A stretch of DNA of 64,000 bases from Calditrichia bacterium (lineage in GTDB: Bacteria; Calditrichota; Calditrichia; RBG-13-44-9; J075). The notes under the pieces are model-generated. The model was not told where the DNA came from. It ran no database searches and was given only the letters and a program-made list of their open reading frames with translations. The stretch is taken from NCBI GenBank assembly GCA_050633245.1, contig JBOEGD010000004.1, positions 141,866 through 205,865 of the forward strand, in the 5' to 3' direction. The translations under genes and the position numbers were made by a program. Below are positions 439 through 19,569 of the stretch, piece by piece (position 1 is the first letter of the stretch; every line of letters begins with the position of its first letter).

Positions 439-2517
439 ATGAATCGTCTCGTTACATTAACCTTTTTACTTCTTTCGGGCATTGTACTCGGAAACGGTGT
501 CGGCATTGTTGACGCAACTACCGGCAGTTATCTTCATCTTGCAAAAAGTGATGTAGAAGTTACGGTTGAAAGTCAGATTGCCATAACCAAAACTACACAT
601 ACTCTGGTAAACACTCAGTTGAATGACGTGCAGATAAAATATGGCTTTCCTCTGAGTGAAAATGCAAGCGCGATCGATTTGCGCTGGAGGGTGAGCGGAC
701 AGTGGTATCAGGCTAACATTAATGAACAGCCTGCAGATACAACGCTTCCCGGTTCGGGTGGGACAGTCCAGCAGGCACTACTCGATCATCTTGGAGCAAC
801 ACCTCTATATTTTGATATTCCTAACTCTGTTGCCGCAAACGATACAATTCTGATTGAATTGAGCTATGTTGAATTATTGCCCTACAGTTTTGGTAAGGTG
901 AACTATGAATATCCTAACGATTATACACTTTTACAAAACAGCAGTGTCGATCGTCAGGAGTTCTTCTTTACGCTTAATTCGCCGCGAACAATTAACGTGA
1001 TTCAGCTTAAGACCAGTCATACGCTTTCACATCTTACCAATAATGGAAATGTCGCAGAAATCGGCACGACTGACCTGGAGCAGCAGGCGGATGAGGATTA
1101 CGCAATTGAGTATGAGCTCGACCTAAATCAGCTGGGCCTCTTTGGTTTTAGTACGCGTATTCCAGATAGCACATTGCCTGACACGCACGGCGGATTTTTT
1201 ACCTTCATTGCCGAGCCGGACCCCACTTCGACGAGCACTATAGATAAAGTCTTTACGTTAATCATTGATCGTTCCGGTAGCATGACTGGTGATAAAATTG
1301 TGCAGGCACGCGATGCAGCTTCTTTTATCGTCAATAATCTCAACGCTGGTGATCGTTTTAACATTGTTGACTTCGCAAGCAATGTAACGGCCTTCAATAG
1401 TGAGCACGTAGATTTCAATGCAACCACGCAGCAGCAGGCCTTGACATATGTAAATCAGATAAACGCGAACGGCGGCACGAATATCTCCGGAGCATTTGAT
1501 GTTGCAATGCCTCAGTTTGGTGCGGCAAATAATTCAACTGCAAACATCATCGTATTCTTCACAGATGGCAGAGCAAATGGTGGAATCAGCAATACTACTG
1601 CGCTGCTGGCACATATTCAACAGCTTCAAAATCAGACCAACGCAAACGTAAGCATCTTTACCTTTGGTATTGGTCCGAATGTAGCTACCCAGTTGTTAAC
1701 GCTTATGGCGTCGCAAAATAACGGACTAGCAGAATTTCTTGGCAATGATGAGTTGTTCGGTCGCATTACCAATTTCTATTTACGCATTCGCAATCCAGTC
1801 CTGTTGGAAACACAAATCAGTTTTACTCCACCGGTCATTAGCGAAGTATATCCAGACCCGCTTCCCAATTTGTATAAGGGACAGCAAATGATTGTTTCGG
1901 GACGCTATCAGTCCGCTCAGCCGGTAACTGTTAGTCTCAGTGGAACGGCCTTTGGGCAGCCGGTGCTTTATGAATATAATCTAAACCTGGCTATTGCCGA
2001 AGAGCCCAACTACCGCTTTCTGACAAAGGTTTGGGCAAAATCCAAAATTGAACATCTGTTGGTCGCATACTTTGGTTTGGATCCAAACGATCCGCAGGCT
2101 CAGATTATCAAAGATGAAATTATCACACTTAGTTTGGCCTATCGGGTTATTAGTCCTTTCACCGGATTTAGCGGCGGTGATCCGGTTGGAATCGAAGACG
2201 AAGAGTTCCTTGGTGAGCAGCCAACACTGAGTGGCGACTTCGAACTCCTGGGTAATTATCCGAATCCGTTTAACCCGACCACCCAGATTCGCGTGAAGAT
2301 AAATGCGGCTTATGCCGGACCGTTGAACATCGCCATCTATAATGCTCTTGGCCAATTGGTTCGCACGCTGACGTTAGACATTAACGGTCCTGGAATATAT
2401 GAAGTGGAATGGGATGGAAGGCTTGCCAGTGGAGAGATTGCCGCGAGTGGCACTTATATCTACGTAGTTGAAGCAAACAATACGGTGCTTGCAGGCAGAA
2501 TGATTCTGCTGAAGTAA
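439..2517 (+). CDS. Secreted VIT + von Willebrand factor A domain protein with T9SS/FlgD-Ig-type C-terminal domain
   Basis: Signal peptide; VIT-like N-terminus; MIDAS motif DRSGSM...GGTNI...FTDG; C-terminal GNYPNPFNPTT...IYNALGQLVRTL; RBS ggagg. Confidence 0.85.
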   Translation: MNRLVTLTFLLLSGIVLGNGVGIVDATTGSYLHLAKSDVEVTVESQIAITKTTHTLVNTQLNDVQIKYGFPLSENASAIDLRWRVSGQWYQANINEQPADTTLPGSGGTVQQALLDHLGATPLYFDIPNSVAANDTILIELSYVELLPYSFGKVNYEYPNDYTLLQNSSVDRQEFFFTLNSPRTINVIQLKTSHTLSHLTNNGNVAEIGTTDLEQQADEDYAIEYELDLNQLGLFGFSTRIPDSTLPDTHGGFFTFIAEPDPTSTSTIDKVFTLIIDRSGSMTGDKIVQARDAASFIVNNLNAGDRFNIVDFASNVTAFNSEHVDFNATTQQQALTYVNQINANGGTNISGAFDVAMPQFGAANNSTANIIVFFTDGRANGGISNTTALLAHIQQLQNQTNANVSIFTFGIGPNVATQLLTLMASQNNGLAEFLGNDELFGRITNFYLRIRNPVLLETQISFTPPVISEVYPDPLPNLYKGQQMIVSGRYQSAQPVTVSLSGTAFGQPVLYEYNLNLAIAEEPNYRFLTKVWAKSKIEHLLVAYFGLDPNDPQAQIIKDEIITLSLAYRVISPFTGFSGGDPVGIEDEEFLGEQPTLSGDFELLGNYPNPFNPTTQIRVKINAAYAGPLNIAIYNALGQLVRTLTLDINGPGIYEVEWDGRLASGEIAASGTYIYVVEANNTVLAGRMILLK

Positions 2518-3463: not shown

Positions 3464-3496
3464 AAAGCCGCCCCGAATTTCGGGGCGGCTTTTTTT
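3464..3496 (+). terminator. Intrinsic terminator after rpsD (possibly bidirectional)
   Basis: aaagccgccccgaa-t-ttcggggcggcttt followed by a T run. Confidence 0.9.
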
Positions 3497-3703: not shown

Positions 3704-4597
3704 TTACTTGATCACCTTCACATACGTCGTATCGGTGATAACCGCTCCAAATACACCAATACCATCTCCAGCCAGATTTAGCACCGGCGCGTGAAAGTTG
3801 CCATCGTCTTCCTGCACATCGTCATAGGTCTTGATGTAGTTCTCGTAGTTCTCATCGCAGGCATAGCCAATCACCTGATACCGTCCGTAAAACGGCAGCT
3901 CGATCCAGAACAGTTCAATCTCACTGCGTCCCGGAGTGGTCGGCATATTCAAATACCATTCGTATTCAAAACGCAAACTGCCCAGATCCTCGCGAACGTC
4001 CTCCTCATCCAGGTCATCATAAGGATTACCGTAGACATAAGACTCTACGCTGCCGTCGATAGCCCAGGTAGAGAAAAGATAGAAGTCGATTCCGGGTGAG
4101 CGTTCGAATTCAATGCTGAAACGCGTCAGGTCGCCGTTGGAATTAGTCTGCCGATACTGCATGCTATCCGCGTTTGTACCCGTTATATCCATGCCGAGCT
4201 GAGGAACAGTGGTAACAGCAGATGTTTGCAAATCCTTACCAGCTACGGTTGCTGAAACATTCAGCTCATAACTGCTGCCGGGAAGAATTATTAGGTCACT
4301 TCCGGGATAAAAATAAGTCCCCTCGTTTGGAGCGTAAGCGAGCGCATAATCCTGCTGGGTTGCAACATCTGTTAATGTGACAACCGCATCCTGAATCAGC
4401 AGTTCTTCGAGACTGATGCGCTCGTTCACCCGGAAGTTACGCGAGATAAAAACGTCGCCAACTCCCTCACCGGGAGTAAGTATGGCAAAGACCGAAATCT
4501 TGGGCTCATAGAGTGAATCATCTACCTTCAAAGTGCCTTCACCACATCCGGAATTAGAAAGAACAATAGCAAGCAAAAGCAATAGTATATAACGCAT
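3704..4597 (-). CDS. DUF4249-family lipoprotein (TBDR-associated)
   Basis: Lipobox-like SNSGC; EPKISVFAIL..., IQDAVVTLTD, C-terminal N..GDGIGVFGA; directly downstream of a TBDR; start could be up to 4621. Confidence 0.7.
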   Translation of the reverse strand: MRYILLLLLAIVLSNSGCGEGTLKVDDSLYEPKISVFAILTPGEGVGDVFISRNFRVNERISLEELLIQDAVVTLTDVATQQDYALAYAPNEGTYFYPGSDLIILPGSSYELNVSATVAGKDLQTSAVTTVPQLGMDITGTNADSMQYRQTNSNGDLTRFSIEFERSPGIDFYLFSTWAIDGSVESYVYGNPYDDLDEEDVREDLGSLRFEYEWYLNMPTTPGRSEIELFWIELPFYGRYQVIGYACDENYENYIKTYDDVQEDDGNFHAPVLNLAGDGIGVFGAVITDTTYVKVIK

Positions 4598-4624
4598 TGG
4601 TGTTTCTCCATTCATCATCATTTA

Positions 4625-6964
4625 TTAGAACTGTAGTCGGAATCCGATTGTTGGCAAAATAGGGAACATGTTCACCGTTTCGATCTCGGGAATACCCTGC
4701 GAGTAATCGTATTCAACAAACCAGATGTTTTTGCGATTGCCGACATTAAATACCTGTATATACGAATCGAGTGCCCAGTTGGTGAACTTTTTTTTGTAGG
4801 TTAGACTAACGTCGAGCCGGGCATAGTGGGGGAGACGCACACTATTGATTGCCGCAGGAAAATAAGCCAGGTCAATACTACCTGTTCCCGGCAACTCGCC
4901 GGTTAAATAGGCTGAACCAGGCTGAGTAATTGGTTGTCCCGAGCTATAGACGCCATTCAACCCGAATACCCAGCGTCCCGGCTTGCCATTGCTCGATTTT
5001 CCACGCAGTTTACGTATGGCATTCGGTATATCAATATTGCTTACGATATTCACTGTGGAATGACGGTCGTGTCGCGGGGCAAATTCTTCACCGGCGTTGA
5101 GCGTTCCAAACTCATAGCGTGTGCGCGTATAGCTGTAACCAATCCATCCGTTTATGGCGCCGCTATTTTTGCGAAAGAGTAGTTCTGCACCACTGCTTTG
5201 CCCATCTCCGCCGTTAAAAATACCCTGCGTGTCGCTGAAAATAGGATCGCCGTTTTCATTAAAACCGGAATTCTGCAGCTCTGTAAGAAAGGTTTGATTG
5301 AATTGATAAATGTTGCGATACCGTTTGAAGTAACCCTCAATTTCAAATTCATAGTTACGCGCCACTTCCTGTTGATAGCCGAGAATAAAATGGTCGGCTT
5401 CAGACTTATCCTGATACTGATTGGCTGTGCTCCAGATGTCGGAGGCGACAGTTTGTGGAATGCGATTAAGGAACTGATGATAGCGCCCAACGGCGGCTTT
5501 TAAATTCACGGTATTGGTAAGTCGGTATTTGAGTGAAGCTCTTGGCTCCCAGCTCTGAAAATCCTTATCAGACGTAAAGTAATTATAGCGTATTCCGGCT
5601 TCAATATCCCAGCGAGTTGATGGTCGCCAGCTGTTTTGTAAATACCCGGTATAGTGCTTTGGACGTTGATCGATATCGACTTCACCACCGGGGAATTCTT
5701 CCTTATATATCACGTGTAGATTTTTCTGCTCGAAACCAAATCTCACCAGCCAGGCCGCGCTATGATGATATTCCAAATTCCCTTTCAGTGACACGTCTGA
5801 AATAAAGTTCTTCGCTTTTGCCGGGAGAATACTGGTGACGTCGAAGGTGGAGGAAAAACGACTACCAGTTAGCCAGAAGTTGCCGAATAGACGTGGCGTG
5901 AAAACACTGGTAAGGCGAGCACTTCCGGTTTGATTTCCCCAATTTAAGTCAAAACCTGAGCGCACTGTTGCGTTCGGATTTAACGTCACCTTCAGAACAT
6001 CGCTGCCACCGTACCCACTTAGCGTTAGCTTGTGAGAAGGGGAGAGCTCATAAAATGCCTTGAGGTTTCCGTCATAAAAGTAATACTCCGGAAGATCGTC
6101 ATTTAATTTTGCGACTGTCTTGTCAAAATACGTTCTGCGAATAGAACCTGAAATCGCTCCTTTTTCTCCAAGCGGCATTTGCAAGGTAGTCTTTGCCGAT
6201 AGCAGGCTAACCGAAGCGCTTCCCTGAAATTCATTACGATTACCATCGAGATTGATAACGTCAAGTATAGAAGACAGCCTTCCACCGTAGGATGCGTTAA
6301 ATCCACCTTTTGAAATTTCCACGTGCTTAATGGCATCTGTATTAAATGTCGAAAAGATTCCGAAAGCGTGTTCCGGATTATATACATCTGTGCCGTCGAT
6401 CAGATACAGGTTTTGATCCGGAGTGCCGCCACGAACGTAAAGGGCGGAAGAGAAATCTGACACCGCCTGCACGCCGGGAAGGGTTTGCAGAGAGCGAAGC
6501 AAATCGCCCTCTGCAACCTGGGGGATGGCATTAATCTGCCTGGGGGATAACTCGATATTGGAAATCGGTTTTTCATACAGCCTGATACTGGTTCGCACCG
6601 AGTCGGCAACAACATCTACAGACTGTCCCTCTACCACGTCTAATGGTAAGCGAACGTCAATTACTACGTTTTCACCCGACTTAAGGTTTACTGTCTGCTT
6701 GAACAGTCGGTAACCAATCATCTCGCAAACGACCTCGTAGCTGCCAGCTGAAACCTGTGACACAAAATAGTAGCCACTGAGATTTGTTGAACCGCCTACG
6801 GCGAGTTCCGGGATATACACATTCGCCCCGATAATTGCCTCGCCATTGCTGGCGTCGTATACAAACCCGCTTATGGAAGCAGAGTTATCTTCGTTTGCCG
6901 AAGCATATCCACATATTAATGCAGCTGCAAATATCAAAACAATTAATAGTAGTCGCACATTCAT
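4625..6964 (-). CDS. TonB-dependent receptor with N-terminal carboxypeptidase-regulatory-like domain
   Basis: ISGFVYDASNGEAIIGANV; plug motif LQTLPGV...VRGGTPDQNLYLIDG; YGGRLSSILD; barrel ending in F. Confidence 0.9.
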   Translation of the reverse strand: MNVRLLLIVLIFAAALICGYASANEDNSASISGFVYDASNGEAIIGANVYIPELAVGGSTNLSGYYFVSQVSAGSYEVVCEMIGYRLFKQTVNLKSGENVVIDVRLPLDVVEGQSVDVVADSVRTSIRLYEKPISNIELSPRQINAIPQVAEGDLLRSLQTLPGVQAVSDFSSALYVRGGTPDQNLYLIDGTDVYNPEHAFGIFSTFNTDAIKHVEISKGGFNASYGGRLSSILDVINLDGNRNEFQGSASVSLLSAKTTLQMPLGEKGAISGSIRRTYFDKTVAKLNDDLPEYYFYDGNLKAFYELSPSHKLTLSGYGGSDVLKVTLNPNATVRSGFDLNWGNQTGSARLTSVFTPRLFGNFWLTGSRFSSTFDVTSILPAKAKNFISDVSLKGNLEYHHSAAWLVRFGFEQKNLHVIYKEEFPGGEVDIDQRPKHYTGYLQNSWRPSTRWDIEAGIRYNYFTSDKDFQSWEPRASLKYRLTNTVNLKAAVGRYHQFLNRIPQTVASDIWSTANQYQDKSEADHFILGYQQEVARNYEFEIEGYFKRYRNIYQFNQTFLTELQNSGFNENGDPIFSDTQGIFNGGDGQSSGAELLFRKNSGAINGWIGYSYTRTRYEFGTLNAGEEFAPRHDRHSTVNIVSNIDIPNAIRKLRGKSSNGKPGRWVFGLNGVYSSGQPITQPGSAYLTGELPGTGSIDLAYFPAAINSVRLPHYARLDVSLTYKKKFTNWALDSYIQVFNVGNRKNIWFVEYDYSQGIPEIETVNMFPILPTIGFRLQF

Positions 6965-6983
6965 CAGAATTCATCCTCTGTTC

Positions 6984-7850
6984 TTATTCACCTTCGATAG
7001 AAATATTGCCGTTTACTGCTTCTAAATTAATCGTTCCGTTTCCCGATCCCAGGCGGCCGCGTAGTGAGGTCGGCGTGCTCTGAGAATCCTGCAGTGGCAG
7101 CCCGATGGAAGAAATACCGCCATTGGTAACCTTTGCATTTAGTTGTGCGGACGTTCCTGTGGGAATCGTTAGAAAAACCTGACCGTTAACTGCCTCAAGG
7201 TCACATATGCCTCCCGGTAATAACGAGAGTTCTGCTACAATGTTACCGTTTACCAGATCGGAGTTGACATTCCCTCGAACGTCGTTTAAATAGATATTTC
7301 CATTGGTCAAATCGGCTGATACGTTTCCATTAATTGCAGCGGCATCAATTTGTCCATTCTCAACATCCACGATGACGGCTTCATTTATTTGAGAAATCGC
7401 AACATTACCGTTAATGTTATCGATGTTAACAAACCAGTCACGCGGCAGGCGCACAAAATAATCAACAATTACGTTTCTGCCATCCGTATCATGTGGTTGA
7501 TCGGTTAGCACGGTCAGGCGCTGATTTTCAATGATAATCTGAACCTGAACCTGATCGAGGAACCATCGCGCATCCCGCAGGCTGTTCGATTCAACGCGCC
7601 TTTCGCCATAGACAATAATTTCCTGTGAGCCGGAAACACCTATTACTTCGACATTTCCATTAATACCATCCACTACAAAGTCGCCCGGTCCGGTTACGTC
7701 AAAAGCATAATCAAAATCTGCGGATGCTACATAGTCATTTCCTCGGTAGTCTGAACCGAAATCTTCTACACAGGAAGAGAATAAAAGTAAAACCAGGCTA
7801 AGATAAAGACCTACTTTCAAAACGCTTTTAGTTGTTCGTTTATTTTTCAT
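6984..7850 (-). CDS. DUF4097 (adhesin-like beta-strand repeat) lipoprotein
   Basis: Lipobox FSSC; repeated NGNV/NGNI units; ends INLEAVNGNISI; ATG 7850 after a Shine-Dalgarno-like agggga. Confidence 0.75.
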   Translation of the reverse strand: MKNKRTTKSVLKVGLYLSLVLLLFSSCVEDFGSDYRGNDYVASADFDYAFDVTGPGDFVVDGINGNVEVIGVSGSQEIIVYGERRVESNSLRDARWFLDQVQVQIIIENQRLTVLTDQPHDTDGRNVIVDYFVRLPRDWFVNIDNINGNVAISQINEAVIVDVENGQIDAAAINGNVSADLTNGNIYLNDVRGNVNSDLVNGNIVAELSLLPGGICDLEAVNGQVFLTIPTGTSAQLNAKVTNGGISSIGLPLQDSQSTPTSLRGRLGSGNGTINLEAVNGNISIEGE

Positions 7851-7958
7851 GATAATCCCCTTTATAAATCGTTGTTTTCTGTTCTTTTTTACTGATTTTT
7901 GGCAAAGCACACCCGTTCGGCGGTTCACCGTTTTTTTTTAACTATATGTGTGTACAGA

Positions 7959-8645
7959 TTAGTCTTTTAGTTTTTTCAGAGCTGCTTTTGCTTCTTCAAT
8001 GGCGTTTTCATCACCACAGGTTTTTGCGTTTTCAAGTGCCCTGCGAAAGTTGGTTTCTGCCTGTTCTTTTTTTTCCAGTGCATCAAATGAACTGGCCAGT
8101 TTAAAATATAGATCGGTGCAGCCATGTTGGTCCGGATATCGTCGCAGGATGCTAATGCTTTTCATTACGACATTGGAATACAATTCGTGAATAAAGAGAG
8201 CATTTACTCCGTTGCTTTCCTTTGTCCATAAATCTTCCGAGGTAGACAGACTGACTTTGTCCTCGCTTTTTGCTCCGTGAACAACGCTTACCTTGCCGAG
8301 TTTAAGCTGTGCCGGAGCACTTCGCTTTTCAAGCTTCTCAATTTTCTGCCGCATCAAAAACAAAAACAGCTCTTTCTGCGTAATATCCCGTAGGTCGGCG
8401 ATGTCGAGAATGCTATTGCTCTCCAGAGTAAACTGCCGCTCGTCATCAAGCGAAAGCACCACGCTGCCATTTTCACCGGTAAGAATCGTATCAATATCCC
8501 TTAATATCATCTGTCTTGCTGCGCCAATCCATTCTTCGTCCATGCCGCGTCGGATTTTGACGCTACCGCTAAGCTCAATGATAGTTGCCTCAAGAGCGAT
8601 GAGTGGAAGGCTGAAAAGAATGATTGCTATAAACAGATGCTTCAT
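7959..8645 (-). CDS. Exported FecR-like domain protein with C-terminal TPR-like helices
   Basis: Signal peptide; IIELSGSVKIRR...L...DTILTGENGSVVL...FTLESNS FecR pattern; LYFKLASSF...AETNFRRAL TPR-like repeat. Confidence 0.65.
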   Translation of the reverse strand: MKHLFIAIILFSLPLIALEATIIELSGSVKIRRGMDEEWIGAARQMILRDIDTILTGENGSVVLSLDDERQFTLESNSILDIADLRDITQKELFLFLMRQKIEKLEKRSAPAQLKLGKVSVVHGAKSEDKVSLSTSEDLWTKESNGVNALFIHELYSNVVMKSISILRRYPDQHGCTDLYFKLASSFDALEKKEQAETNFRRALENAKTCGDENAIEEAKAALKKLKD

Positions 8646-8667
8646 AATGTCTCCAATAAAAAATCAG

Positions 8668-10260
8668 TTAGTTCACATCAAAAATTGAAACCCAGCCGTT
8701 ATCCACACCTTGCTTGATGATGCCATCCTGCAGATATTGTATGGCGCCGGTTTCCCATGCGCTGTTGAAGCCTTCTCGCAGCAAGGTTGTTTCAATGGGC
8801 AGCCATATCGAGCTGCTTCCGTTCGGGTTTTCGCGGACGATATATCGCTTTTCGTTACTGCTGATTTGCGATGCATTTTGAGGCGTTACTCCGGTATCGA
8901 GAAGCAGGTATATGTGTGCCAATGTTTCATCCGGATCCTGAACTTGTACAAAGGCTATATCTATTCCCAGACTTTGTAATACAGAGCCATAACAAATTAC
9001 CAAATCATCACAATCGCCACTTCGTAACCCAAGCGTCTCGCCCGCATACTGCACGCGATCATCGCTGTAGAACGGCACCTGTGGATCACTCTGATAGCTT
9101 ATTTTCATGGTGCCGAGAGAGTCGAAAGCCGCTTCGGCAAGCTGTAAGTTTGATGGTTGGGATCCAAGCGCCGAATTTAGATTCCTTCCCAACGTGCGAG
9201 CAAAATTAAAAACCGTCTCGTCTTCGGGCGTTAAGAAAAAGACAAGATTACTTACCGTGCCATCCCAACTGTTTCGGGTATGAACGAACAACTGTTCACT
9301 GATATGTTTGGTTGTCGTTCTGCCAGAGCGCCCTTCAATTTGAATATTCAGCATTGCGGGCTCGCGGGAACTCGACTTGCGATTTGCATCGTCAAAAAAC
9401 ACCTTAACCGGTATGTCCTGCGTCTCGCCCTTTTCCAACTTAACAAAACCACTTTCTCGCTGGCGATATGCGTAGGGAGGAAGTGTTGCGGCCACGTTTA
9501 TTTCGATATCATGTCCGGCTGTATTCTGAATTGTAATCAGAGCGAGCGGATAGTTGTTATAGAATCTCTGATAGGCCGGGTATATGTCTTCTACGATCAG
9601 GCGAGTCTGCTTTACCCGAAACATTTCGCGTTTCTTACCCCACATAAAAACCAGTCCCAGTCCAAACTCCGCTCCGCTTATGTCGGTTTTGGTAGTGAAG
9701 TCTACAAAGTGATAACGTGCGTCCAGGTTGAATCCGATCCAGCTGGTGAACGGAATATTTATTCCTGCTCCCAGATAACCCCCGAAATCGAATTGACTTC
9801 CGGCAGTTACAGATTCTATCTCTTCGCCCAGCTGTTCCTGTACCTCCACCTTTTGTCTCCAGTACCCTCCTGTTCCGGCAGAAATATAAGGCTGAATGCG
9901 GGTGCTGAGTGCCGGTGAGAAGAGATCATAACGAACACCTGCGAGAAGTGGAAACACGACGTCCACATCAACTGACGTACTGAGTGAATCTTCTTCAATA
10001 ATCGTCAGTCTGCTAACGGCTCCGGTGTTAAACTCCATAAACAGTTGATCCTGGATGCGGGAGTGGTAATACAACCATGCACCGACACCTTCAATATTCA
10101 CCCGATCGGGATTAATATCGTCTACGACGACTGAAAATGGATCTCCACCCATATTCCAGTAGCTTGCGCGAAAGCCGAGCCCGGAGTCTCGTTGAATGCC
10201 CTGTGCATGTAGTGACGTCGATAGCATGATTAATAGTCCGATTAGAAGCGATTGTTTCAT
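8668..10260 (-). CDS. Outer-membrane beta-barrel fused to a transglutaminase-like domain
   Basis: Signal peptide; OmpA/OmpW-like barrel strands to GLVFMWG; C-terminal GDCDD...AHIYLLLD...WLPIETT core. Confidence 0.65.
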   Translation of the reverse strand: MKQSLLIGLLIMLSTSLHAQGIQRDSGLGFRASYWNMGGDPFSVVVDDINPDRVNIEGVGAWLYYHSRIQDQLFMEFNTGAVSRLTIIEEDSLSTSVDVDVVFPLLAGVRYDLFSPALSTRIQPYISAGTGGYWRQKVEVQEQLGEEIESVTAGSQFDFGGYLGAGINIPFTSWIGFNLDARYHFVDFTTKTDISGAEFGLGLVFMWGKKREMFRVKQTRLIVEDIYPAYQRFYNNYPLALITIQNTAGHDIEINVAATLPPYAYRQRESGFVKLEKGETQDIPVKVFFDDANRKSSSREPAMLNIQIEGRSGRTTTKHISEQLFVHTRNSWDGTVSNLVFFLTPEDETVFNFARTLGRNLNSALGSQPSNLQLAEAAFDSLGTMKISYQSDPQVPFYSDDRVQYAGETLGLRSGDCDDLVICYGSVLQSLGIDIAFVQVQDPDETLAHIYLLLDTGVTPQNASQISSNEKRYIVRENPNGSSSIWLPIETTLLREGFNSAWETGAIQYLQDGIIKQGVDNGWVSIFDVN

Positions 10261-10324
10261 TTGTTTTTTCCCGTAAGAAAGATTCTGTGTGTTGCAATGA
10301 TCCTTACGGATAAGTTAGCATATG

Positions 10325-10363
10325 GATACAGGAAAACTCAACACTGTTCGTTTTTCCTGTATC
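10325..10363. terminator. Intercistronic 12-bp hairpin
   Basis: gatacaggaaaa / ttttcctgtatc between the two barrel genes. Confidence 0.5.
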
Positions 10364-10377
10364 TCTTCCCGTCAATT

Positions 10378-11073
10378 TTAATACCGACCCCACATGAATG
10401 TCAGACCAAGACTGAAATCCAGCCCGTTTTGATAGATGCTGTTATTGCTTGGAAGATCAATCATATGATAGCGCAGGTCTCCGGTCAGTGCTACATGTCT
10501 ACCCAGCTTAAAATCTGCACCTCCGCCAAAATAGAATCCGGAATACGTTTCAGAAACGCTGCTTACTTCTTCTTCATAATAGAAGTAGTCTTCTATCTCA
10601 ACATCGCTGGTTATGTAGAAGCCACCACCAAACGAAATGAATGGTCGGATACCGGCACGTTGGTTAATTGGAACCATATCGTAGCGGAGACCGAATAATA
10701 ATGGTGCAACCGCATTAACCTTAACCAAATCGAAGTCTGCATATTCTTCGCTTATTTGCACTTTGCCAACTGCGCCAATGGAAACGTCAGCAATTAGCTG
10801 TTCGCCAATACGATTAAAAAAGACCAGGGAACCACCATAACCTTCAATGTTCAGATCGTTTCCATAACGACTGTTGCGAATACGGACACTCGGCTCTCCT
10901 ACAAAGGCATCCCAATAGTTGCCGCGGAAGGTGATTCCAGTGCTCGGAGCAGAATACCCACGCTTATAGCGTTTATCGTGGTGACGTTTATGGTGAAAAT
11001 CCTGAGCAAGCAGATGACTAAACCCGGATAAAAGAACTAAGATTGCCAAGGTGAACTTTAATTGCGTTTTCAT
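10378..11073 (-). CDS. Outer-membrane beta-barrel protein (OmpW/OmpA-like), His-rich N-terminus
   Basis: Signal peptide; IRPFISFGGG, GFYFGGGADF, DLRYH, FSLGLTFMW amphipathic strands; RBS gagg. Confidence 0.75.
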   Translation of the reverse strand: MKTQLKFTLAILVLLSGFSHLLAQDFHHKRHHDKRYKRGYSAPSTGITFRGNYWDAFVGEPSVRIRNSRYGNDLNIEGYGGSLVFFNRIGEQLIADVSIGAVGKVQISEEYADFDLVKVNAVAPLLFGLRYDMVPINQRAGIRPFISFGGGFYITSDVEIEDYFYYEEEVSSVSETYSGFYFGGGADFKLGRHVALTGDLRYHMIDLPSNNSIYQNGLDFSLGLTFMWGRY

Positions 11074-11143
11074 TGTTTATCCCTCATAGTGTGACTTGTA
11101 GATTTTTTTGTGACTTTCAGATTTGAATTCTGTCTGAGGGTAA

Positions 11144-11159
11144 TACAAGCGCGATGCCA
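11144..11159 (-). promoter_or_regulatory. Putative sigma54 (-24/-12) promoter of the barrel/FecR/TBDR operon
   Basis: Minus strand TGGCAT-CGCGC-TTGTA(TTA); -12 region identical to the site at 352-370. Confidence 0.65.
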
Positions 11160-11258
11160 AAAAAGAGAGCTTGTTTGTAAGTTCTTGTTAATATATGGCT
11201 TGTGCGGTGTTTTGTCGAAAGGGAGAGGTGTAAACGAAGTTAACGCCGAGATGCAAGT

Positions 11259-11273
11259 GCGGAAAAATTCCGC
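11259..11273. promoter_or_regulatory. Palindromic enhancer-like site GCGGA-N5-TCCGC (putative UAS)
   Basis: gcggaaaaattccgc, centred about 108 bp upstream of the -24 GG at 11158. Confidence 0.5.
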
Positions 11274-11286
11274 GGAAAAGTGCTTA

Positions 11287-13812
11287 CTAAATTGACGTTT
11301 GTCTTAGATGATCGATCAATTGTTGCAGAAAGGGATGATATGCTTTGGGAAGGCCGCGAAAAGCGGATTGCGCATCCTTGGCAGGATTTTTTAAGAGGTT
11401 GTTTAGATTGCCTAAATAGGCTCGCACTTTATTACCGGCTGCAGTAATTGTTTGTTTATCATTTTCTCCCGCCAGTTTTATGGCTGCCTCATCTATATCG
11501 AAATGGCATTCGGTTAGCGTGCGGAACACGATTCCGCGCAAGTATTCGGTAATGGTTCCCCGGTCGCGGTCTCCCAGTCTGCGGGCTGTTTGCGATATTG
11601 CCGATCGCGAGAACTTTAACTCACGCAGAGACTCAAGGATTTGCTGTTCCAGAGTAAGATATTCGCTTGCAGCAGCTTCTCCTTTGCTAAAGCGGATTTC
11701 TTCAGGTAAATCTTCCTGGCGAATGAGTTTTCTTCCGGCAGAAGCGGCTAACACCAACCCGCGCTGTATAACATTCTCCAGCTCACGAATATTGCCTGGC
11801 CAACTGTAGCGCGTTAATTGATTGAGTGCTTCCTGCGAGATGTTAGAAACTTCCGGGGCTGAAACTCCGGAATGTTTCGCAATAAAATGTGTAACCAACA
11901 GCGGAATATCATCCATACGTTCACGCAGTGGGGGCAATTTGATAGAAACACCGTTGAGGCGATAAAAGAGATCTTTCCGAAAACGCCCAGACTCCACCTC
12001 ATTCTGCGGATTGCGATTTGTAGCAGCAATTACACGCACATCTACCGCCAGAGTTTTTTCACCACCAACCTTCTCGAACGTACCTTCCTGCAATACGCGT
12101 AGTAAACGCGATTGGAATGGTGAATCGGTCTCGGTGATTTCATCGAGAAAAAGGGTTCCCTTATTAGCCAGTTCAAAACGTCCCTTACGCGCAGCGTGTG
12201 CCCCGGTAAAGCTGCCTTTCTCATGACCAAAAAGTTCACTATTCAATAGGTCGGTCGAGAGGGCGCCACAGTTTACCGCAATAAACGCATTGTTCTGCCG
12301 AATGCCTTTGCGATGTAGTTCTTGCGCGATGAGCTCTTTTCCGGTGCCGGTCTCACCAATTATTAATATAGATAAGTCGCTGTCACGAAAGGTATGGATC
12401 ATTTGAAGAACGTCGGCCATTTTTCCGTCAGGGGAGTGGATTATCGATGACGTGTTCTGTGAGGTTTCCGGCATAGAGGCGTTTACTGGCCTACTGGCTG
12501 TTTGTAAATCTCTCAATTCTTTTTCAAGACGTATAATGGTCGCTTTATGCTCCGAAGCTTTTATCTGAAGCTCTTCAGAACGCTCATTGTTTCCTGCCAA
12601 GCTCTCCCGAGCTGTTTGTAATTCAGTTTGCGCAACCTGGAGTTCATATGAACGTTTTACGATAGTTTCTTCTAAAAGACCTGCTTGTTGCAGCGTACTG
12701 CTCAATTTCTGTTTTCGAACCAGAATAAACGCGCCTCCAAAAAGAACAACTGACTGAATAACAGGTATGATAAAAGGAATGATGAGATTGAATTTTACGA
12801 AGGCTGCCACAGATGCAAAAATTACGCAGCATAATGTCGTCAGAAAAAGCAGCAAGGTGCGAAACGGACTGAGATTGAACCTTTGCCAGAAAAATAGACT
12901 GCTGAGTAAAACCAGAAGTATCGCTGATTGCCATAGTGTGTTCATAGAACGAAGTTCATTGTTGTTAATCAAATTCTCGGCGGTAGTAAGGTGAATGAGC
13001 GATGGCGGCAGCTCATTGGCGAGCGGCGTAGCAACGGGACTGATAACGCCGGAGTATACAACGCTTACCAAAACCATCTTATCGGTAAAATTCAGTGAAT
13101 CAGGTTTTTCTTGAAATTGTTTTAACACATCAACAAAGCTGTACTTTTGAACTTGCTCCCACGTACCAAAATGGTTTAGTCTGATTGTCTCGGCGTTAAA
13201 AACGGTCTCGCTGGCTCTTGCCGAGACATCATGACCGGCTTGTTTGAAATAAACTTCTGCGATTGCCTTGCCAAAGGAGGAAAATGTGTTGTTCTGCCAT
13301 GATGTATTGAGTGGTGTTTTAAGTAGTTGAGGTTCGGAGCCAATATTGCTAAAGCCAATTTGTGCAGCACTATTACGAATTTCATCTATTGGGAAAAGAG
13401 GATCGGTAGACTCCTTTGAAGATAAGTCTGCAAAGGCAAATGGTAGCACAGTGGGACCGCCGCTGAAGAAGCGAGATACATCCGAATCAAAAGCATCATT
13501 GGGTGAAGGCCTCTTTAGAAAAAGAATGTCGAATGCGATAACGCGAGCATTGAGTTCGGTTAAGATATGAGCCATGTATCCATAATAGTCTCTCGATACC
13601 GGCCACCCGCCCATATTCTCGATGTCGTCTTTATCAATATAGATGACCACAAAGTTGCTATCGAGCTGCCTCTCTCCGCGCATGTTTAGAAGTAAGCGAG
13701 TTTCGGTATCAAGAGCAGCTTGTTGCAGGTATGTGTTGTTGTTGCTAAATAATATGACTATTAGCATAAACGGAAAAAAGATTACCGGGCCGGAAAATAG
13801 TCGTGCTTTCAA
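11287..13812 (-). CDS. Membrane-anchored sigma54-dependent activator with periplasmic CHASE2 domain
   Basis: VVIYIDKDDIENMGGWPVSR...ARVIAFDILF (CHASE2); three TM helices; coiled coil; AAA+ motifs GETGTGKE, ELFGHEKGSFTGA, LFLDEI, LFYRLN, WPGNIREL; TTG start. Confidence 0.85.
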   Translation of the reverse strand: MKARLFSGPVIFFPFMLIVILFSNNNTYLQQAALDTETRLLLNMRGERQLDSNFVVIYIDKDDIENMGGWPVSRDYYGYMAHILTELNARVIAFDILFLKRPSPNDAFDSDVSRFFSGGPTVLPFAFADLSSKESTDPLFPIDEIRNSAAQIGFSNIGSEPQLLKTPLNTSWQNNTFSSFGKAIAEVYFKQAGHDVSARASETVFNAETIRLNHFGTWEQVQKYSFVDVLKQFQEKPDSLNFTDKMVLVSVVYSGVISPVATPLANELPPSLIHLTTAENLINNNELRSMNTLWQSAILLVLLSSLFFWQRFNLSPFRTLLLFLTTLCCVIFASVAAFVKFNLIIPFIIPVIQSVVLFGGAFILVRKQKLSSTLQQAGLLEETIVKRSYELQVAQTELQTARESLAGNNERSEELQIKASEHKATIIRLEKELRDLQTASRPVNASMPETSQNTSSIIHSPDGKMADVLQMIHTFRDSDLSILIIGETGTGKELIAQELHRKGIRQNNAFIAVNCGALSTDLLNSELFGHEKGSFTGAHAARKGRFELANKGTLFLDEITETDSPFQSRLLRVLQEGTFEKVGGEKTLAVDVRVIAATNRNPQNEVESGRFRKDLFYRLNGVSIKLPPLRERMDDIPLLVTHFIAKHSGVSAPEVSNISQEALNQLTRYSWPGNIRELENVIQRGLVLAASAGRKLIRQEDLPEEIRFSKGEAAASEYLTLEQQILESLRELKFSRSAISQTARRLGDRDRGTITEYLRGIVFRTLTECHFDIDEAAIKLAGENDKQTITAAGNKVRAYLGNLNNLLKNPAKDAQSAFRGLPKAYHPFLQQLIDHLRQTSI

Positions 13813-13897
13813 ACTACAACGCCCCCATAAACGCAGAACGAATACGTTTTGCCTGTGCTTCCGGAGTGATTCTGATTTTCATACATTTCTTGTGCTG

Positions 13898-14314
13898 TCA
13901 TGCAGAAGCCGAAGAGATTTCCCGTGAGTTGTTAATCACCGAAATTTGATCGTTCAGGTTCCAATAGTCGTATAAATACCCAACCAAAAACAAACCGCCG
14001 GTCAGTAGGTATAGTATACCGGTAAACCATTTCTCCATATACATGCGATGCACACCAAATAAGCCCAGAAAGGTTAACAAGACCCAGGCTACGGTGTAGT
14101 CAATTTCTCCATCTTGAAAGCGGGCTGTTGCCTGCTCCTTCAAGGTTGGCATCAGAAACAAATCAACTATCCAACCGATCAGAAAGAGACCAAATGTAAA
14201 GAAATAAATTGTGCCAGAGATGGGGTTCCCATAGTAGAAACGATGCGAACCGGTAAATCCGAATATCCATAAAATGTATCCAATACCCAGACTGTGACTT
14301 TGATTGCCAATCAT
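13898..14314 (-). CDS. TM2/NINE domain membrane protein
   Basis: Two TM2 repeats: GYILWIFGFTGSHRFY and LLTFLGLFGVHRMY. Confidence 0.85.
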   Translation of the reverse strand: MIGNQSHSLGIGYILWIFGFTGSHRFYYGNPISGTIYFFTFGLFLIGWIVDLFLMPTLKEQATARFQDGEIDYTVAWVLLTFLGLFGVHRMYMEKWFTGILYLLTGGLFLVGYLYDYWNLNDQISVINNSREISSASA

Positions 14315-14366
14315 TATACTGATCTCCTTTTTGCCAGACTACGGTGGGAATCGATTGAAGTTTACT

Positions 14367-15197
14367 TTAACGTAGATTGAACCGAAGTCTAAGGCTGGTT
14401 TGAATATCACCCTGCGTATCGACATTGATGGTTGGCTGTACGTAGGGGCTACGAAATGCATCCAAAACGGTTAACCCCCAGGCTATGCCAGTTGACAGAA
14501 GCAGGGTCTTGCGTTTTTTTTGGCGATCATTATACGTCTTGTAAAGCTGGTCTATTTCAGGAAAGAAAGTTGCAGCTGTATAGACTTTCTTCGCATCACT
14601 TTCTTTTAACCAAACATAAGCGGTTGCGGCAATCAAACCGGAAACTGTGCCAGCAAAGAAAATCGAGCGGGTCTTGTGTCCTTTTTGCCACTGGCCAAGG
14701 CCGGGGAGTAACAGGCTGCGCACTCCGGCAGAAGGTCTGATATCTGGAACAGCCAGCTTTTCTTTAATGGTAATTGGAGACTCTGGCTCTTCTGTCGGTT
14801 GCTGCAGGCGTTTAATGTGAACAAAATCTTTACGGACATCTTCAAAAAAGCGCAGAATCTTAGGCGATGTTCTTATTGGGTCGAGATTGGCATTCTCATT
14901 TAGATTCAGAAGATTGATAAAGTGCTGCTTCGATGAATCCAGCTGAGCTGTATGAAAGAATGATATAGCCAGGGTCTCATGAGCCAGTTCTGCTGTCTGT
15001 TTGAGAAGGTCTGGAAATTGAAGCAATTTGTGTCCATGATGAAGTGCTTCTTCAAAATCTGCGGCCTTCAGTGCCGAATCCATTGCCTCTTTGTATTGCT
15101 CAATTGTCTGCGACTTTGCCGTCGATAGAAATAACAGAAGCAATATTAGAGGCATTATCGTTTTTGTAATCGCACTTGCACGATGCTGAATAGTCAT
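14367..15197 (-). CDS. Exported TPR-like protein with DUF5683-like C-terminal region
   Basis: Signal peptide; TPR-like helices ending LDP..TSPKI..FF; RSLLLPGLGQW motif. Confidence 0.6.
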   Translation of the reverse strand: MTIQHRASAITKTIMPLILLLLFLSTAKSQTIEQYKEAMDSALKAADFEEALHHGHKLLQFPDLLKQTAELAHETLAISFFHTAQLDSSKQHFINLLNLNENANLDPIRTSPKILRFFEDVRKDFVHIKRLQQPTEEPESPITIKEKLAVPDIRPSAGVRSLLLPGLGQWQKGHKTRSIFFAGTVSGLIAATAYVWLKESDAKKVYTAATFFPEIDQLYKTYNDRQKKRKTLLLSTGIAWGLTVLDAFRSPYVQPTINVDTQGDIQTSLRLRFNLR

Positions 15198-15204
15198 AGC
15201 CGCT

Positions 15205-16827
15205 TCAAGGAGTTAACGTTATTTTTTTTCGAGTTACCTGATCTGCTATAATACTGATGCTGTCCGACCACGTCTGGAAGTTCGGATTGCTCAACATTAG
15301 CAAATGTCTGCCCTGCGGAAGCTCGAGTGGTTGAGAAAGAGGCGTTGTCTCGATAAACCGCCCGTTGCAGTGTACGTTTGCCCAGGGAATAACAGTCAGA
15401 TCAAGATAACCGAGAAGAGGCGATAAATCAATAGCAAGTGAGTCCGTTCTGGCTGATTGAATACTTAGGCTGTCGCTATAAGTGCTGAAGTTTGGGTTGC
15501 GAATTTCTATTGAATGTCGTCCTGCCGGCAACTCGATAGGCTCCATCATAGGCGTAGTATCGTATTCAATACCGTTGAGATAGATTACTCCCCATGGATT
15601 ACATAAAACATGCAGAAAACCGTTTTCTGCCTGAGCTAAAATGGGCTCCTTCTTTGCCACCGCCAGCGTATCACGTACTGTTGTCATCGGTTCCCCTCTT
15701 TTTAAAGATGGCTCTTTAGGATTTATTTCAGTCTGAGACGTTTCAATGAGTGTCTCAACGTCAGGTTCCTCAAGTGGGTTCTGATTGGATAGTGTGTCCG
15801 GCATTATCATTTCAGTCTGTTTATCTGCTCTGCTATGCACAGGTGTGCGCCATTGATGTGCCGCAATTGCAATAAACAAGGACGACAGCAGAATTCCGAC
15901 CATCAGAAGTAGCTTTCCGCCACTAAAAGTGTTTTCGAATGAGGAAATATCCCTTCCCTGCCGAGGCATTGAATTGTTGACATGCGGAGCTGCCACAAGC
16001 TTGGCAATGCGCGGGCTGTCGGGGTTCGTCTCGGATGTATCGAATCTCACCAAAAGCTCACTGGCTGTGCCAGGTCGTAGAGTCACATCTTTTTGCAGCA
16101 TGTCCATGACCAAATTGCTAAACCAGTCTGGCAGTTCTGGTCGCAGTTGATTCGGGGCAGGGGGTACGTTATTTAAAATTTGCTGCATGCACTCTCCGGC
16201 GCTTTTTGCAGCGAAGGGAGATTCACCAACGGCCATTTCGTAAAAGGTAATTCCGCAGCTAAACAGATCGCTGGAAGATGATATTGCGCTACCGCTGATT
16301 TGCTCCGGCGACATATATGCAGGTGTTCCCACGGTGCCATACTGAGCTGTTACCTTTGGTAAATCTGCTACTGTTGCAAGACCAAAATCAACTATTTGAG
16401 CTCGTCCCTCCGAGCTAATTAAAATATTGGCTGGCTTTATATCCCGATGAATAACCTTATGATCGTGCGCATAGTGCAATCCGGAAAGAATTCCACGCGA
16501 AATGCTGCAAATAATATCGAAGGGCAGGGGAGAGTGCAGCTGAATAAACTCATCTAACGGATTACCTTCAACAAATTCGATAATCATATAGAGGGCATCT
16601 TTTTCGGTGCCGACATCGAAAATACTGATTATATTGGGATGTTTAAGACGAGCACAAATCAGTGCCTCGCGGCGAAAGCGTTCAACGAGCTCATCATCTT
16701 TTTGCCATTGGGTGTTGAGAACCTTTATAAGAACGGGTCTGTCTAATGCCGACTGTTTTCCGCGATATACCGTGGTTATTGGACCGCGACTGAGTTCATC
16801 AAGTAGTTCGAAACCCTCAATCTTCAT
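15205..16827 (-). CDS. Hanks-type Ser/Thr protein kinase with TM helix and two PEGA-like domains
   Basis: VLIK, HPNII, HRDIKPANIL, DFGLA, GTPAYMSPEQ; TM near aa 305-325; two PW...TTP...LP.GRH repeats. Confidence 0.9.
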   Translation of the reverse strand: MKIEGFELLDELSRGPITTVYRGKQSALDRPVLIKVLNTQWQKDDELVERFRREALICARLKHPNIISIFDVGTEKDALYMIIEFVEGNPLDEFIQLHSPLPFDIICSISRGILSGLHYAHDHKVIHRDIKPANILISSEGRAQIVDFGLATVADLPKVTAQYGTVGTPAYMSPEQISGSAISSSSDLFSCGITFYEMAVGESPFAAKSAGECMQQILNNVPPAPNQLRPELPDWFSNLVMDMLQKDVTLRPGTASELLVRFDTSETNPDSPRIAKLVAAPHVNNSMPRQGRDISSFENTFSGGKLLLMVGILLSSLFIAIAAHQWRTPVHSRADKQTEMIMPDTLSNQNPLEEPDVETLIETSQTEINPKEPSLKRGEPMTTVRDTLAVAKKEPILAQAENGFLHVLCNPWGVIYLNGIEYDTTPMMEPIELPAGRHSIEIRNPNFSTYSDSLSIQSARTDSLAIDLSPLLGYLDLTVIPWANVHCNGRFIETTPLSQPLELPQGRHLLMLSNPNFQTWSDSISIIADQVTRKKITLTP

Positions 16828-19556: not shown

Positions 19557-19569
19557 AGTTTCAGGAACC

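Follow-up and report, generated by a model that had tools for sequence, protein, structure and literature searches.

How can a bacterium make a set of outer-membrane and periplasmic proteins answer to the state of its envelope, when their genes are accompanied neither by an extracytoplasmic function (ECF) sigma factor nor by a histidine kinase? The question is raised by a locus in a 64,000-nucleotide stretch of DNA from a Calditrichia bacterium (assembly GCA_050633245.1, contig JBOEGD010000004.1, positions 141,866 to 205,865; the whole stretch is here called the window), where seven co-oriented genes occupy positions 3704-13812 of the minus strand. A preliminary description of the window had placed and called these genes correctly, as our Pfam annotation confirms, and it was equally right that no ECF sigma factor or histidine kinase is found by Pfam within 3704-13812. 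The gene at the upstream end of the block encodes an 841-amino-acid (aa) protein that joins a CHASE2 sensor to the AAA+ domain of sigma-54 activators, and that we call CHASE2-EBP, for enhancer-binding protein (EBP). In this study, we have combined domain annotation, comparison of related loci, motif analysis and structure prediction, and we conclude that this membrane activator very probably drives the operon behind it through a phased enhancer and sigma-54. We also think it reasonably probable that the whole is a one-component envelope sensor-regulator, with a 228-aa exported beta-domain/tetratricopeptide repeat (TPR) protein, FecT, as the partner of the sensor, and that it regulates its own sensing parts.

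Results

A predicted membrane-bound sigma-54 activator

CHASE2-EBP matches CHASE2 (PF05226) with 103.3 bits against a cut-off of 26.3 and Sigma54_activat with 221.8 bits against 20.2 (residues 462-624), followed by AAA_lid_14 (630-714). From its N-terminus the protein comprises a transmembrane helix, a periplasmic CHASE2 domain (about 17-304), a cluster of transmembrane helices (about 293-366), a linker resembling a coiled coil (about 370-440) that holds a conserved LEKELRDL, the AAA+ domain, its lid and a conserved tail (715-841). Hydrophobic segments were found at 1-24 and 314-366 by hydropathy, and at 293-312 by reading of the alignment, which makes four predicted membrane helices in a 1+3 layout around CHASE2; this layout agrees with the description of CHASE2 in one earlier study (PMC5192318).

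Across the 23 aligned family members the residues expected of a working AAA+ domain are retained. All sequences agree at G533, F535, T536, G537 and A538 of the GSFTGA loop, and nearly all at S534. Likewise invariant are G486, E487, T488, G489, G491, K492 and E493 of the Walker A motif GETGTGKE and F555-I559 of FLDEI; the GAFTGA-type loop and the Walker A and B motifs are the named motifs of sigma-54 AAA+ domains. Judged by this intact domain, the protein is a true sigma-54 activator. The tail of 127 residues is strongly conserved as well (LKFSRSAISQTAxxLGNRDRGTITEYFRGI…FKGLPKKYHP) and includes a motif like a helix-turn-helix (HTH); in look and position it resembles a Fis-type HTH.

The genome has the sigma factor that such an activator would need: rpoN is present as a sole copy (Sigma54_DBD E 2.7e-58) at G000:C4:140343-140816, about 1 kb before base 1 of the window. 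The distance to the cassette, which is on the same strand, is about 13 kb. The genome as a whole is rich in sigma-54 sites, with 152 occurrences of TGGCAY-N5-TTG against 93 expected in 6.3 Mb. A sigma-54 output, as put forward in the preliminary description, is thus borne out by rpoN, by the intact GSFTGA loop and by the conserved promoter and enhancer considered below.

A palindrome and a candidate -24/-12 promoter at helically phased spacings

A gap of 213 bp follows the activator gene and contains both a palindrome and a -24/-12 promoter (Table 1), the two elements that the preliminary description had seen there. The palindrome begins 15 bp past the activator stop codon, and it stands close behind the activator in most linked loci; the promoter begins 114 bp after the start of the palindrome. 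In its strict form the palindrome occurs once in the 6,345,459-base genome, against 0.8 occurrences expected. Ahead of the first operon gene, TGGCAY-N5-TTG was found in 16 of 16 activator-linked loci, and GCGGRA-N3-TYCCGC was recovered by regular expression in 14 of these, the other two having a degenerate form; a further half-site, TTCCGCA, often lies about 14 nt beyond the palindrome. In three genomes operon and activator were found apart, separated by 15 kb of one contig in the first and lying on different contigs in the other two; here too the palindrome/promoter pair precedes the operon, so that the pair belongs to the operon.

We defined a pair as a palindrome with at most two mismatches standing 60-170 bp before a promoter, and looked for it in 72 sequences (the window and loci L057-L127). 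It was present on the operon strand in 55 of them and on the opposite strand in none; among the 17 sequences without a pair are seven whose contigs start at the barrel gene. The 56 palindrome-promoter spacings fall into four classes, 91-92 bp (2 cases), 101-104 (22), 110-115 (12) and 122-125 (20), with none between. These classes are about 11 bp apart, and the resultant length at a period of 11.0 is 0.86, a value inflated by shared descent, against at most 0.46 in 2000 random sets. The empty gaps between the classes argue for a constraint on the face of the helix. Taken as patterns, the sites exceed chance and the pair is kept across relatives; what we call promoter and enhancer are candidates by this kind of evidence.

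A contig from a public run, about 93% identical to the window and collinear with it over 3713-14400, has four indels between palindrome and promoter that sum to zero and so keep the spacing; its indels are intergenic except for one compensating pair at 13410/13412. One related locus (L072) has two pairs with the same palindrome, at 5177-5294 and 12508-12646, one before a receptor gene and one before a DUF4097 gene. Three poly-A RNA runs gave 0, 0 and 1 reads, and runs of this kind are no test of expression.

A conserved cassette with a variable periphery

In the phylum, the CHASE2 part of the activator was found in 20 of 86 genomes and the family of the 530-aa barrel-immunoglobulin (Ig)-transglutaminase-like protein in the same 20, neither being found in the other 66, although kin among these genomes are not independent. 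Nineteen of these activator genes were viewed in their surroundings: 13 have the barrel-transglutaminase gene and the FecT gene directly downstream, two are cut by contig ends yet consistent with this order, and two lie on contigs too short to tell. When one genome was taken for each species and searched with the 530-aa family, 78 loci came up, of which the 69 with the C-terminal part, most of them full length, were counted; the 78 include the species of the 19 activator loci, so the two sets are not independent. The FecT gene follows the 530-aa gene in 64 of 65 loci with downstream sequence (strictly adjacent in 59), the small barrel gene precedes it in 56 of 63, and the activator lies upstream in 34 of the 47 loci having at least 6 kb of upstream sequence. 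A DUF4097 gene is present in 42 of 53 loci having at least 2.5 kb downstream, and a TonB-dependent receptor in 18 of 69, in varying positions. Based on these counts, the core consists of activator, small barrel, barrel-transglutaminase protein, beta-domain/TPR protein and usually DUF4097, the receptor and DUF4249 being cargo. The preliminary description had made its interpretation depend on the linkage of these genes in other genomes, and that linkage is conserved.

The activator family reaches beyond these loci. A protein search returned about 73 full-length protein clusters carrying CHASE2 and Sigma54_activat, labelled KSB1 or Zhuqueibacterota where named, and PF02954 (HTH_8) was found in none of them. 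A metagenome-assembled genome (MAG) labelled Kryptoniota (L127) encodes a CHASE2 activator, two unknown genes, a 667-aa transglutaminase-like protein, a FecT gene and DUF2279. In a 201-genome sample of the class of this MAG, 43 genomes match its CHASE2 part at E<=1e-15, about two dozen of them with frames of 867-964 aa, and CHASE2, AAA+ domain and this C-terminal tail recur, with 38-44% identity, in all six loci that were checked. Furthermore, in MAGs labelled Nitrospirota and Desulfobacteria (L128, L133) the gene next after a CHASE2 cyclase encodes an NHL-fn3-Ig/transglutaminase-like-TPR protein of 1231-1269 aa, so a Cys-His/TPR module accompanies CHASE2 with another output too.

FecT and its predicted contact with CHASE2

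FecT begins with a signal peptide that has no lipobox; a small beta-domain (20-81) and a conserved helix (90-104, ELFLxLMxxK) come next, and a linker leads to TPR-like helices (136-227). Its AlphaFold2 (AF2) model has a predicted local distance difference test (pLDDT) value of 90.9. The TPR part matches Pfam at E 0.003, and a profile search of the Protein Data Bank (PDB) returned TPR matches only. The protein is exported by its signal peptide and has no membrane anchor or anti-sigma part.

When the FecT profile (77 members) was run over all open reading frames of the genome, two matches arose outside TPR regions: the first 85 residues of a Pfam-FecR protein beside a CHASE2 cyclase on C29 (E 3.9e-6) and a 315-aa protein beside a CHASE2 Ser/Thr kinase on C5 (E 7.9e-5). 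Since both adjoin other CHASE2 genes, all three CHASE2 loci of the genome have a FecT-like neighbour. The C29 locus (L005, G000:C29, 8743-15201) is a third CHASE2 module, with a CHASE2-adenylate cyclase-TPR gene preceded by genes for a 799-aa protein without a Pfam match, a true Pfam-FecR protein of 222 aa and a 404-aa unknown protein. On C5 (L006, G000:C5) the row runs CHAT-TPR protein, FecT-like 315-aa protein, CHASE2 Ser/Thr kinase and GAF-type sigma-54 activator.

We then come to the complex of CHASE2 (residues 26-300) with FecT (19-228), predicted from alignments of 23 and 77 rows, respectively. It scored 0.80, whereas the best of three controls scored 0.00, and in this the contact between CHASE2 and partner that the preliminary description had supposed gains support from a prediction with controls. 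The mark for this score is attained by 116 of 157 solved complexes and by 2 of 215 mismatched pairs, counts that apply here in rough terms, since own alignments went into the prediction. At least 71% of the contacts are shared between runs, and the partner has a pLDDT of 79 or more. The predicted interface sets FecT 90-108 and 192-194 against CHASE2 62-82, 104-115 and 225-234, which places the conserved FecT helix on the conserved CHASE2 motif GGWPxxRDYYGY; among its conserved residues are D63, L67, D75, Y76, Y79 and E107 of CHASE2 and F94, L97, K101 and G194 of FecT. To our knowledge no complex of CHASE2 has been solved, and a score owed to a remembered structure is therefore improbable.

The barrels and the transglutaminase-like domain

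The 530-aa protein has a signal peptide, an eight-stranded outer-membrane barrel (24-210), an Ig-like sandwich (214-326) and an alpha/beta transglutaminase-like domain (330-530), in an AF2 model of pLDDT 84.6. By Foldseek the barrel resembles OmpA, OmpW and OmpX (E 2.9e-8 to 2e-5; target template-modelling scores (TM-scores) 0.53-0.69), and the remainder resembles factor XIII, TG2 and protein 4.2 in fold (E about 4e-4). Cys417 and His449 are invariant in 41 sequences of the family, and Asp455 and Glu490 are conserved. The fusion of barrel and transglutaminase announced in the preliminary description draws support from these residues, from the fold matches and from PF01841 in homologues; the window copy itself is below the PF01841 threshold (E 0.13). 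PF01841 is precomputed in 25 of the 120 homologues listed, and distant relatives at L127, L130 and L134 exceed the cut-off (23.5-23.7 bits against 23). From its sequence and its model, residues 330-530 are a member of the transglutaminase-like superfamily with a predicted Cys-His-acid triad. Barrels of this type usually have both termini in the periplasm, so the Cys-His domain would face that compartment.

The 231-aa barrel falls just below the Pfam cut-off (OMP_b-brl E 2.5e-6, 28.2 bits against 28.7) and is a paralogue of the barrel in the 530-aa protein, as seen from an E of 1.1e-47 to the barrel profile of that family. Several arrangements of these domains deserve mention. At L110, a short contig, two full-length copies of the 530-aa gene stand in tandem and are followed by a third, partial copy. 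A 693-aa frame at G068:C6:158361-159338 (L055) matches the Ig/transglutaminase-like part alone (214-530, 32% identity) and represents a second architecture of this domain; no palindrome or promoter is nearby, and the genome also carries the cassette. At G000:C24:53142-54781, 40 nt separate another sigma-54 activator (490-aa frame) from a 217-aa barrel behind it (E 1.8e-11 to the cassette barrels). This locus was considered as a paralogous system, and because there is no -24/-12 site between its two genes we do not count it as one.

Other genes of the block and its surroundings

The DUF4097 protein, of the "toastrack" type, also matches NCBIfam LiaG at E 3.1e-14, below the cut-off of that family, and its true start is likely to be the ATG at 7850, which gives a lipobox (MKNKRTT...LLLFSSC). 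The TonB-dependent receptor has no STN signalling domain by Pfam. The DUF4249 lipoprotein is the usual companion of this receptor type and goes with the receptor in related loci. Past the last gene, a hairpin (3464-3492) probably serves as a two-way terminator. In a scan for terminators and sigma-70 promoters the sites were no more numerous than in shuffles, and for this reason we name only this strong hairpin.

Table 1. Features of the CHASE2-EBP locus (window positions; strand "." where none applies).
Feature	Position	Strand	Basis or remark
CHASE2-EBP, 841 aa	11287..13812	-	Pfam, hydropathy, alignment of 23 family members
Palindromic enhancer candidate GCGGAATTTTTCCGC	11259..11273	-	Only strict match in genome; conserved in relatives
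Further half-site TTCCGCGGAA	11268-11277		Overlapped by palindrome
Candidate sigma-54 type -24/-12 promoter, TGGCAT-N5-TTGT	11144..11159 (TGGCAT-N5-TTG 11159-11146)	-	
Small outer-membrane beta-barrel, 231 aa, signal peptide	10378..11073	-	OMP_b-brl
530-aa barrel-Ig-transglutaminase-like protein	8668..10260	-	OMP_b-brl at residues 9-204, AF2 model, Foldseek
FecT, 228 aa	7959..8645	-	Signal peptide, AF2 model, TPR fold
DUF4097 (toastrack, LiaG-like) lipoprotein	6984..7928	-	Pfam DUF4097 E 1.6e-6
TonB-dependent receptor	4625..6964	-	CarbopepD_reg_2, Plug, TonB_dep_Rec_b-barrel
DUF4249 lipoprotein, last gene of block	3704..4621	-	Pfam; lipobox LSNSGC
Hairpin, 13-bp, G+C-rich, A and T runs at flanks	3464..3492	.	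Between convergent rpsD and block end

Directly upstream of the activator, on the minus strand, lie genes for a 138-aa protein with two TM2 domains (13898-14314, E 1.3e-28) and a 276-aa DUF5683-like protein (14367-15197), and further upstream on the same strand a Ser/Thr kinase with PEGA domains (15205-16827) and then a GAF-type sigma-54 activator (16817-18286). We considered these four as parts of the system and rejected them, since they are not conserved beside the cassette: the GAF activator adjoins it in 3 of 78 loci and the Ser/Thr kinase in 1 of 78. The pairs of kinase and GAF activator at 15205-18286 of the window and on C5 suggest kinase-to-activator signalling, a two-protein counterpart of the fused system. 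The region is flanked by cargo proteins of type IX secretion, a VIT-VWA and a Kelch-repeat protein at 439-2517 (plus strand) and 18297-19727 (minus strand), each with Por_Secre_tail.

Discussion

The gene content, conservation, cis-elements and co-occurrence that we observed describe a real, conserved system, whose sensing mechanism can be tested. Its parts are familiar one by one. In Sinorhizobium meliloti, according to two studies (PMC7529298, PMC13001267), the CHASE2 adenylate cyclases CyaK, CyaD1 and CyaD2 need the outer-membrane beta-barrel NsrA to perceive an outside signal, a precedent for a connection from outer-membrane barrel to CHASE2 that the preliminary description had rightly cited. 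Both systems have an outer-membrane barrel protein and an inner-membrane CHASE2 sensor, but the output of the NsrA system is cAMP and Clr, whereas that of the window system would be sigma-54. Moreover, NsrA is one large protein, while the window system splits the barrel and the beta-domain/TPR part into separate genes and adds a transglutaminase-like domain. NsrA is also said to carry a FecR domain.

A second resemblance is found in the Burkholderia "BiofilmReg" operon and in a CHASE2-cyclase cluster of Campylobacterota, in both of which an exported FecR-domain protein is encoded beside a CHASE2 sensor and has been proposed to act in one pathway with it (PMC5192318, PMC9239204). The Burkholderia operon comprises a response regulator, a LysM-FecR protein, a CHASE2 histidine kinase and DUF4136, and the Campylobacterota cluster has a TPR protein as a further product. 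Three differences are clear: those modules have two-component or cyclase outputs, whereas in the window the sensor is fused to the transcription activator itself; FecT, unlike their FecR-domain proteins, is below the Pfam FecR threshold; and no barrel-transglutaminase protein is described for them. On the side of the activator, CHASE2-EBP resembles NtrC, NtrC1 and DctD in its AAA+ domain with a GAFTGA-type loop, in an enhancer some 90-125 bp upstream of a -24/-12 promoter and in a coiled-coil linker. The known proteins of that type are soluble, and cytoplasmic domains such as receiver, GAF or PAS control them. CHASE2-EBP, in contrast, is predicted to span the membrane with four helices and to have its sensor in the periplasm; it has no receiver domain, and no HTH_8 is recognised in it.

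There are further partial parallels. ToxR and CadC are inner-membrane transcription activators with a periplasmic sensor, which work with sigma-70 and winged-helix domains, and CHASE2-EBP is like them in being a transcription activator held in the inner membrane with its sensor in the periplasm. CpxP with CpxA and PspA with PspF are feedback partnerships, in which CpxP acts on a kinase and PspA on a soluble activator, PspF being also an instance of sigma-54 control of an envelope response; the likeness here is that of a partner, encoded in the regulon, which would act back on the sensor. None of ToxR, CadC, CpxP and PspA joins a periplasmic sensor to a ring-forming AAA+ activator. Our literature search found no paper joining CHASE2 with sigma-54 or enhancer binding and, by title or abstract, none on a membrane-integral sigma-54 activator, subscription journals being mostly outside that search; for CHASE2 together with transglutaminase nothing related was found. 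The preliminary description, which knew of no account of such a system, is borne out within the literature searched.

A number of observations weigh against our interpretation. Ten of the 72 sequences have upstream DNA yet no strict palindrome/promoter pair, and the -12 element departs from the canonical TTGC in that the base after TTG varies. Two of the 19 activator genes have no operon within 13 kb (it is 15 kb off on the same contig for one and on another contig for the other), and 13 of 47 loci lack the activator within 10 kb. Pfam at E<=10 finds no HTH in the last 137 residues of CHASE2-EBP, and HTH_8 is not recognised in the tail; an hhalign comparison with the HTH_8 region of the nearby GAF activator gives a probability of 1.8% (E 0.027), in the expected register; a profile search of PDB sequences returned nothing relevant to it; and ESM Atlas offers sub-threshold leads to HTH_8, HTH_50 and HTH_40 (scores 0.81-0.87). 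As no tool recognises the tail as an HTH, its binding of DNA is something that we infer, and hold to be most likely. The genome has 33 strong Sigma54_activat matches, so another activator could bind the palindrome. A protein tethered to the membrane would have to form an AAA+ ring on DNA, which is a difficulty, and the score of the predicted complex is the confidence of a model, not a measurement.

To these must be added the doubtful kinship of FecT with FecR. The preliminary description had called this protein FecR-TPR, a label that the FecR match does not sustain (PF04773, E 0.12, 13.2 bits against a cut-off of 24). A FecR match at E<=1 was found in 2 of 12 orthologues, one at E<=0.001 in none of 60 more distant relatives, and the best structural match of the beta-domain is 5ix9, a "cell surface anchoring domain" from an adhesin retention module (Foldseek E 2.4e-3, target TM-score 0.74; VIA-align Z 9.1, root-mean-square deviation 3.2 over 75 aligned residues). 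In the same direction, NCBIfam retention_LapA matches FecT at E 0.009, a whole-genome PF04773 scan missed it, and no FecR structure is among the Foldseek and VIA-align matches listed, which is not proof of a different fold. A direct comparison with FecR by hhalign gave E 0.003 at a probability of 10%. Going by these comparisons, the N-terminal domain may be called weakly FecR-like.

Which other explanations could account for the locus? The most serious is that the activator controls the operon but that the operon proteins are output only, CHASE2 itself sensing a small molecule or a membrane cue. The variable receptor and DUF4249 cargo, together with the toastrack lipoprotein, do resemble an effector regulon; the link of FecT to sensing comes from neighbourhood and a prediction; and CHASE2 is described as a small-molecule receptor domain in one paper (PMC8195603). 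We nevertheless regard this explanation as unlikely. FecT-like neighbours stand at all three CHASE2 loci of the genome despite their different outputs, and transglutaminase-like/TPR proteins follow CHASE2 cyclases in other phyla. The pairing of CHASE2 with FecR is published for kinases and for cyclases (PMC5192318, PMC9239204), and the predicted complex, well apart from its controls, brings conserved surfaces together.

Less probable still is that CHASE2-EBP is a pro-form, from which proteolysis triggered by the signal frees coiled coil, AAA+ domain and tail as a cytoplasmic activator, following the logic of FecR or RsiV cleavage. This would solve the assembly of the ring on DNA at the membrane, and it could draw on the Cys-His, papain-like domain encoded in the operon and on the long conserved linker between membrane helices and AAA+ domain. 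The transglutaminase-like domain is, however, predicted to be periplasmic and the linker cytoplasmic, and the conserved block has no gene for a site-2 protease. We give this explanation a small chance.

That the adjacency is historical, with another sigma-54 activator or other factor binding the palindrome and the CHASE2 protein regulating something else, seems to us very improbable. The many other activators of the genome, the unrecognised tail and the genomes in which operon and activator are unlinked leave room for it, but they have to be set against a perfect co-occurrence in the phylum (20 of 20 present together, 66 of 66 absent together), a palindrome that is unique in the genome and starts just behind the activator stop codon here and close behind the activator in most linked loci, and a tail that is as conserved as the site it would read, the second class included. 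Signalling of the FecIRA type, finally, in which the TonB-dependent receptor would bind a substrate and pass the signal through the FecR-like protein, has the presence of both proteins in one block in its favour and is hardly credible, because the receptor lacks STN and occurs in a minority of loci at varying positions, FecT has no transmembrane or anti-sigma part, and the block is without an ECF sigma factor.

The same facts decide on the analogy from which the preliminary description had started. A logic that spans the envelope and a FecR-like fold recall FecIRA, but the block lacks an ECF sigma factor and an anti-sigma factor anchored in the membrane, and its receptor is without STN; with a receptor that has no signalling domain and is accessory (18 of 69 loci), this is not signalling of the FecIRA kind. 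The interpretation given there thus survives in its sigma-54 output, its linkage and its predicted contact between CHASE2 and partner, and is given up in its likeness to FecIRA and in the FecR label.

We therefore return to the sensor-regulator that we favour, and set out how it may work. An inner-membrane protein of 841 aa would carry a periplasmic CHASE2 domain, from which three membrane helices and a coiled coil lead to the AAA+ domain and the tail. It most likely binds the palindrome GCGGRA-N3-TYCCGC and, from there, on a fixed face of the helix, would activate the -24/-12 promoter of the downstream operon, with its core of small outer-membrane barrel, barrel-Ig-transglutaminase-like protein, periplasmic FecT and usually toastrack lipoprotein. 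FecT would be the partner of the sensor, docking its conserved helix on the GGWPxxRDYYGY motif of CHASE2, so that the AAA+ domain would be more or less active according to the state of the outer-membrane/periplasmic module, and the circuit would control the very parts with which it senses. That FecT docks on CHASE2 and thereby reports the state of the barrel/Cys-His module, a step drawn from neighbourhood logic and one prediction, we put forward tentatively, at a little under an even chance; the contact itself is predicted. FecT could act as an activator or, like CpxP, as an inhibitor, a feedback brake. The barrels may be sensors, the flow may run from barrel to FecT to CHASE2, and the loop may be self-reinforcing and not self-limiting. 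In a similar manner we infer the role of the Cys-His domain and the signal itself; the DUF4097 toastrack and the envelope location of every product suggest a response to the state of the envelope.

A wider reading would make CHASE2 domains in general receptors for a protein partner and not for small molecules. An exported beta-domain/TPR (FecR-like) protein would clamp its conserved helix onto the GGWPxxRDYYGY surface, an outer-membrane-anchored Cys-His domain would modify or sequester this partner upon a change in the envelope, and in this lineage the sensor would be wired into a sigma-54 AAA+ ring that has to assemble on enhancer DNA at the inner membrane. Taken as a whole, this joint reading appears to us rather unlikely.

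Conclusion

If our interpretation is true, CHASE2-EBP is an enhancer-binding protein integral to the membrane, and the literature that we searched describes no such class. Sigma-54 activators are treated as soluble cytoplasmic proteins, and with a family that is built into the membrane and yet has a phased enhancer the question arises how DNA looping and an AAA+ ring can function there. CHASE2 is a poorly understood sensor domain, although it is common in kinases, cyclases and Ser/Thr kinases. In this compact, conserved cassette the sensor stands together with its likely partner and with one unique target promoter, and the read-out is directly transcriptional, which makes the cassette convenient for testing CHASE2 signalling, including a specific predicted interface. 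The cassette would also add a case to the idea that sigma-54 governs the exterior of the cell.

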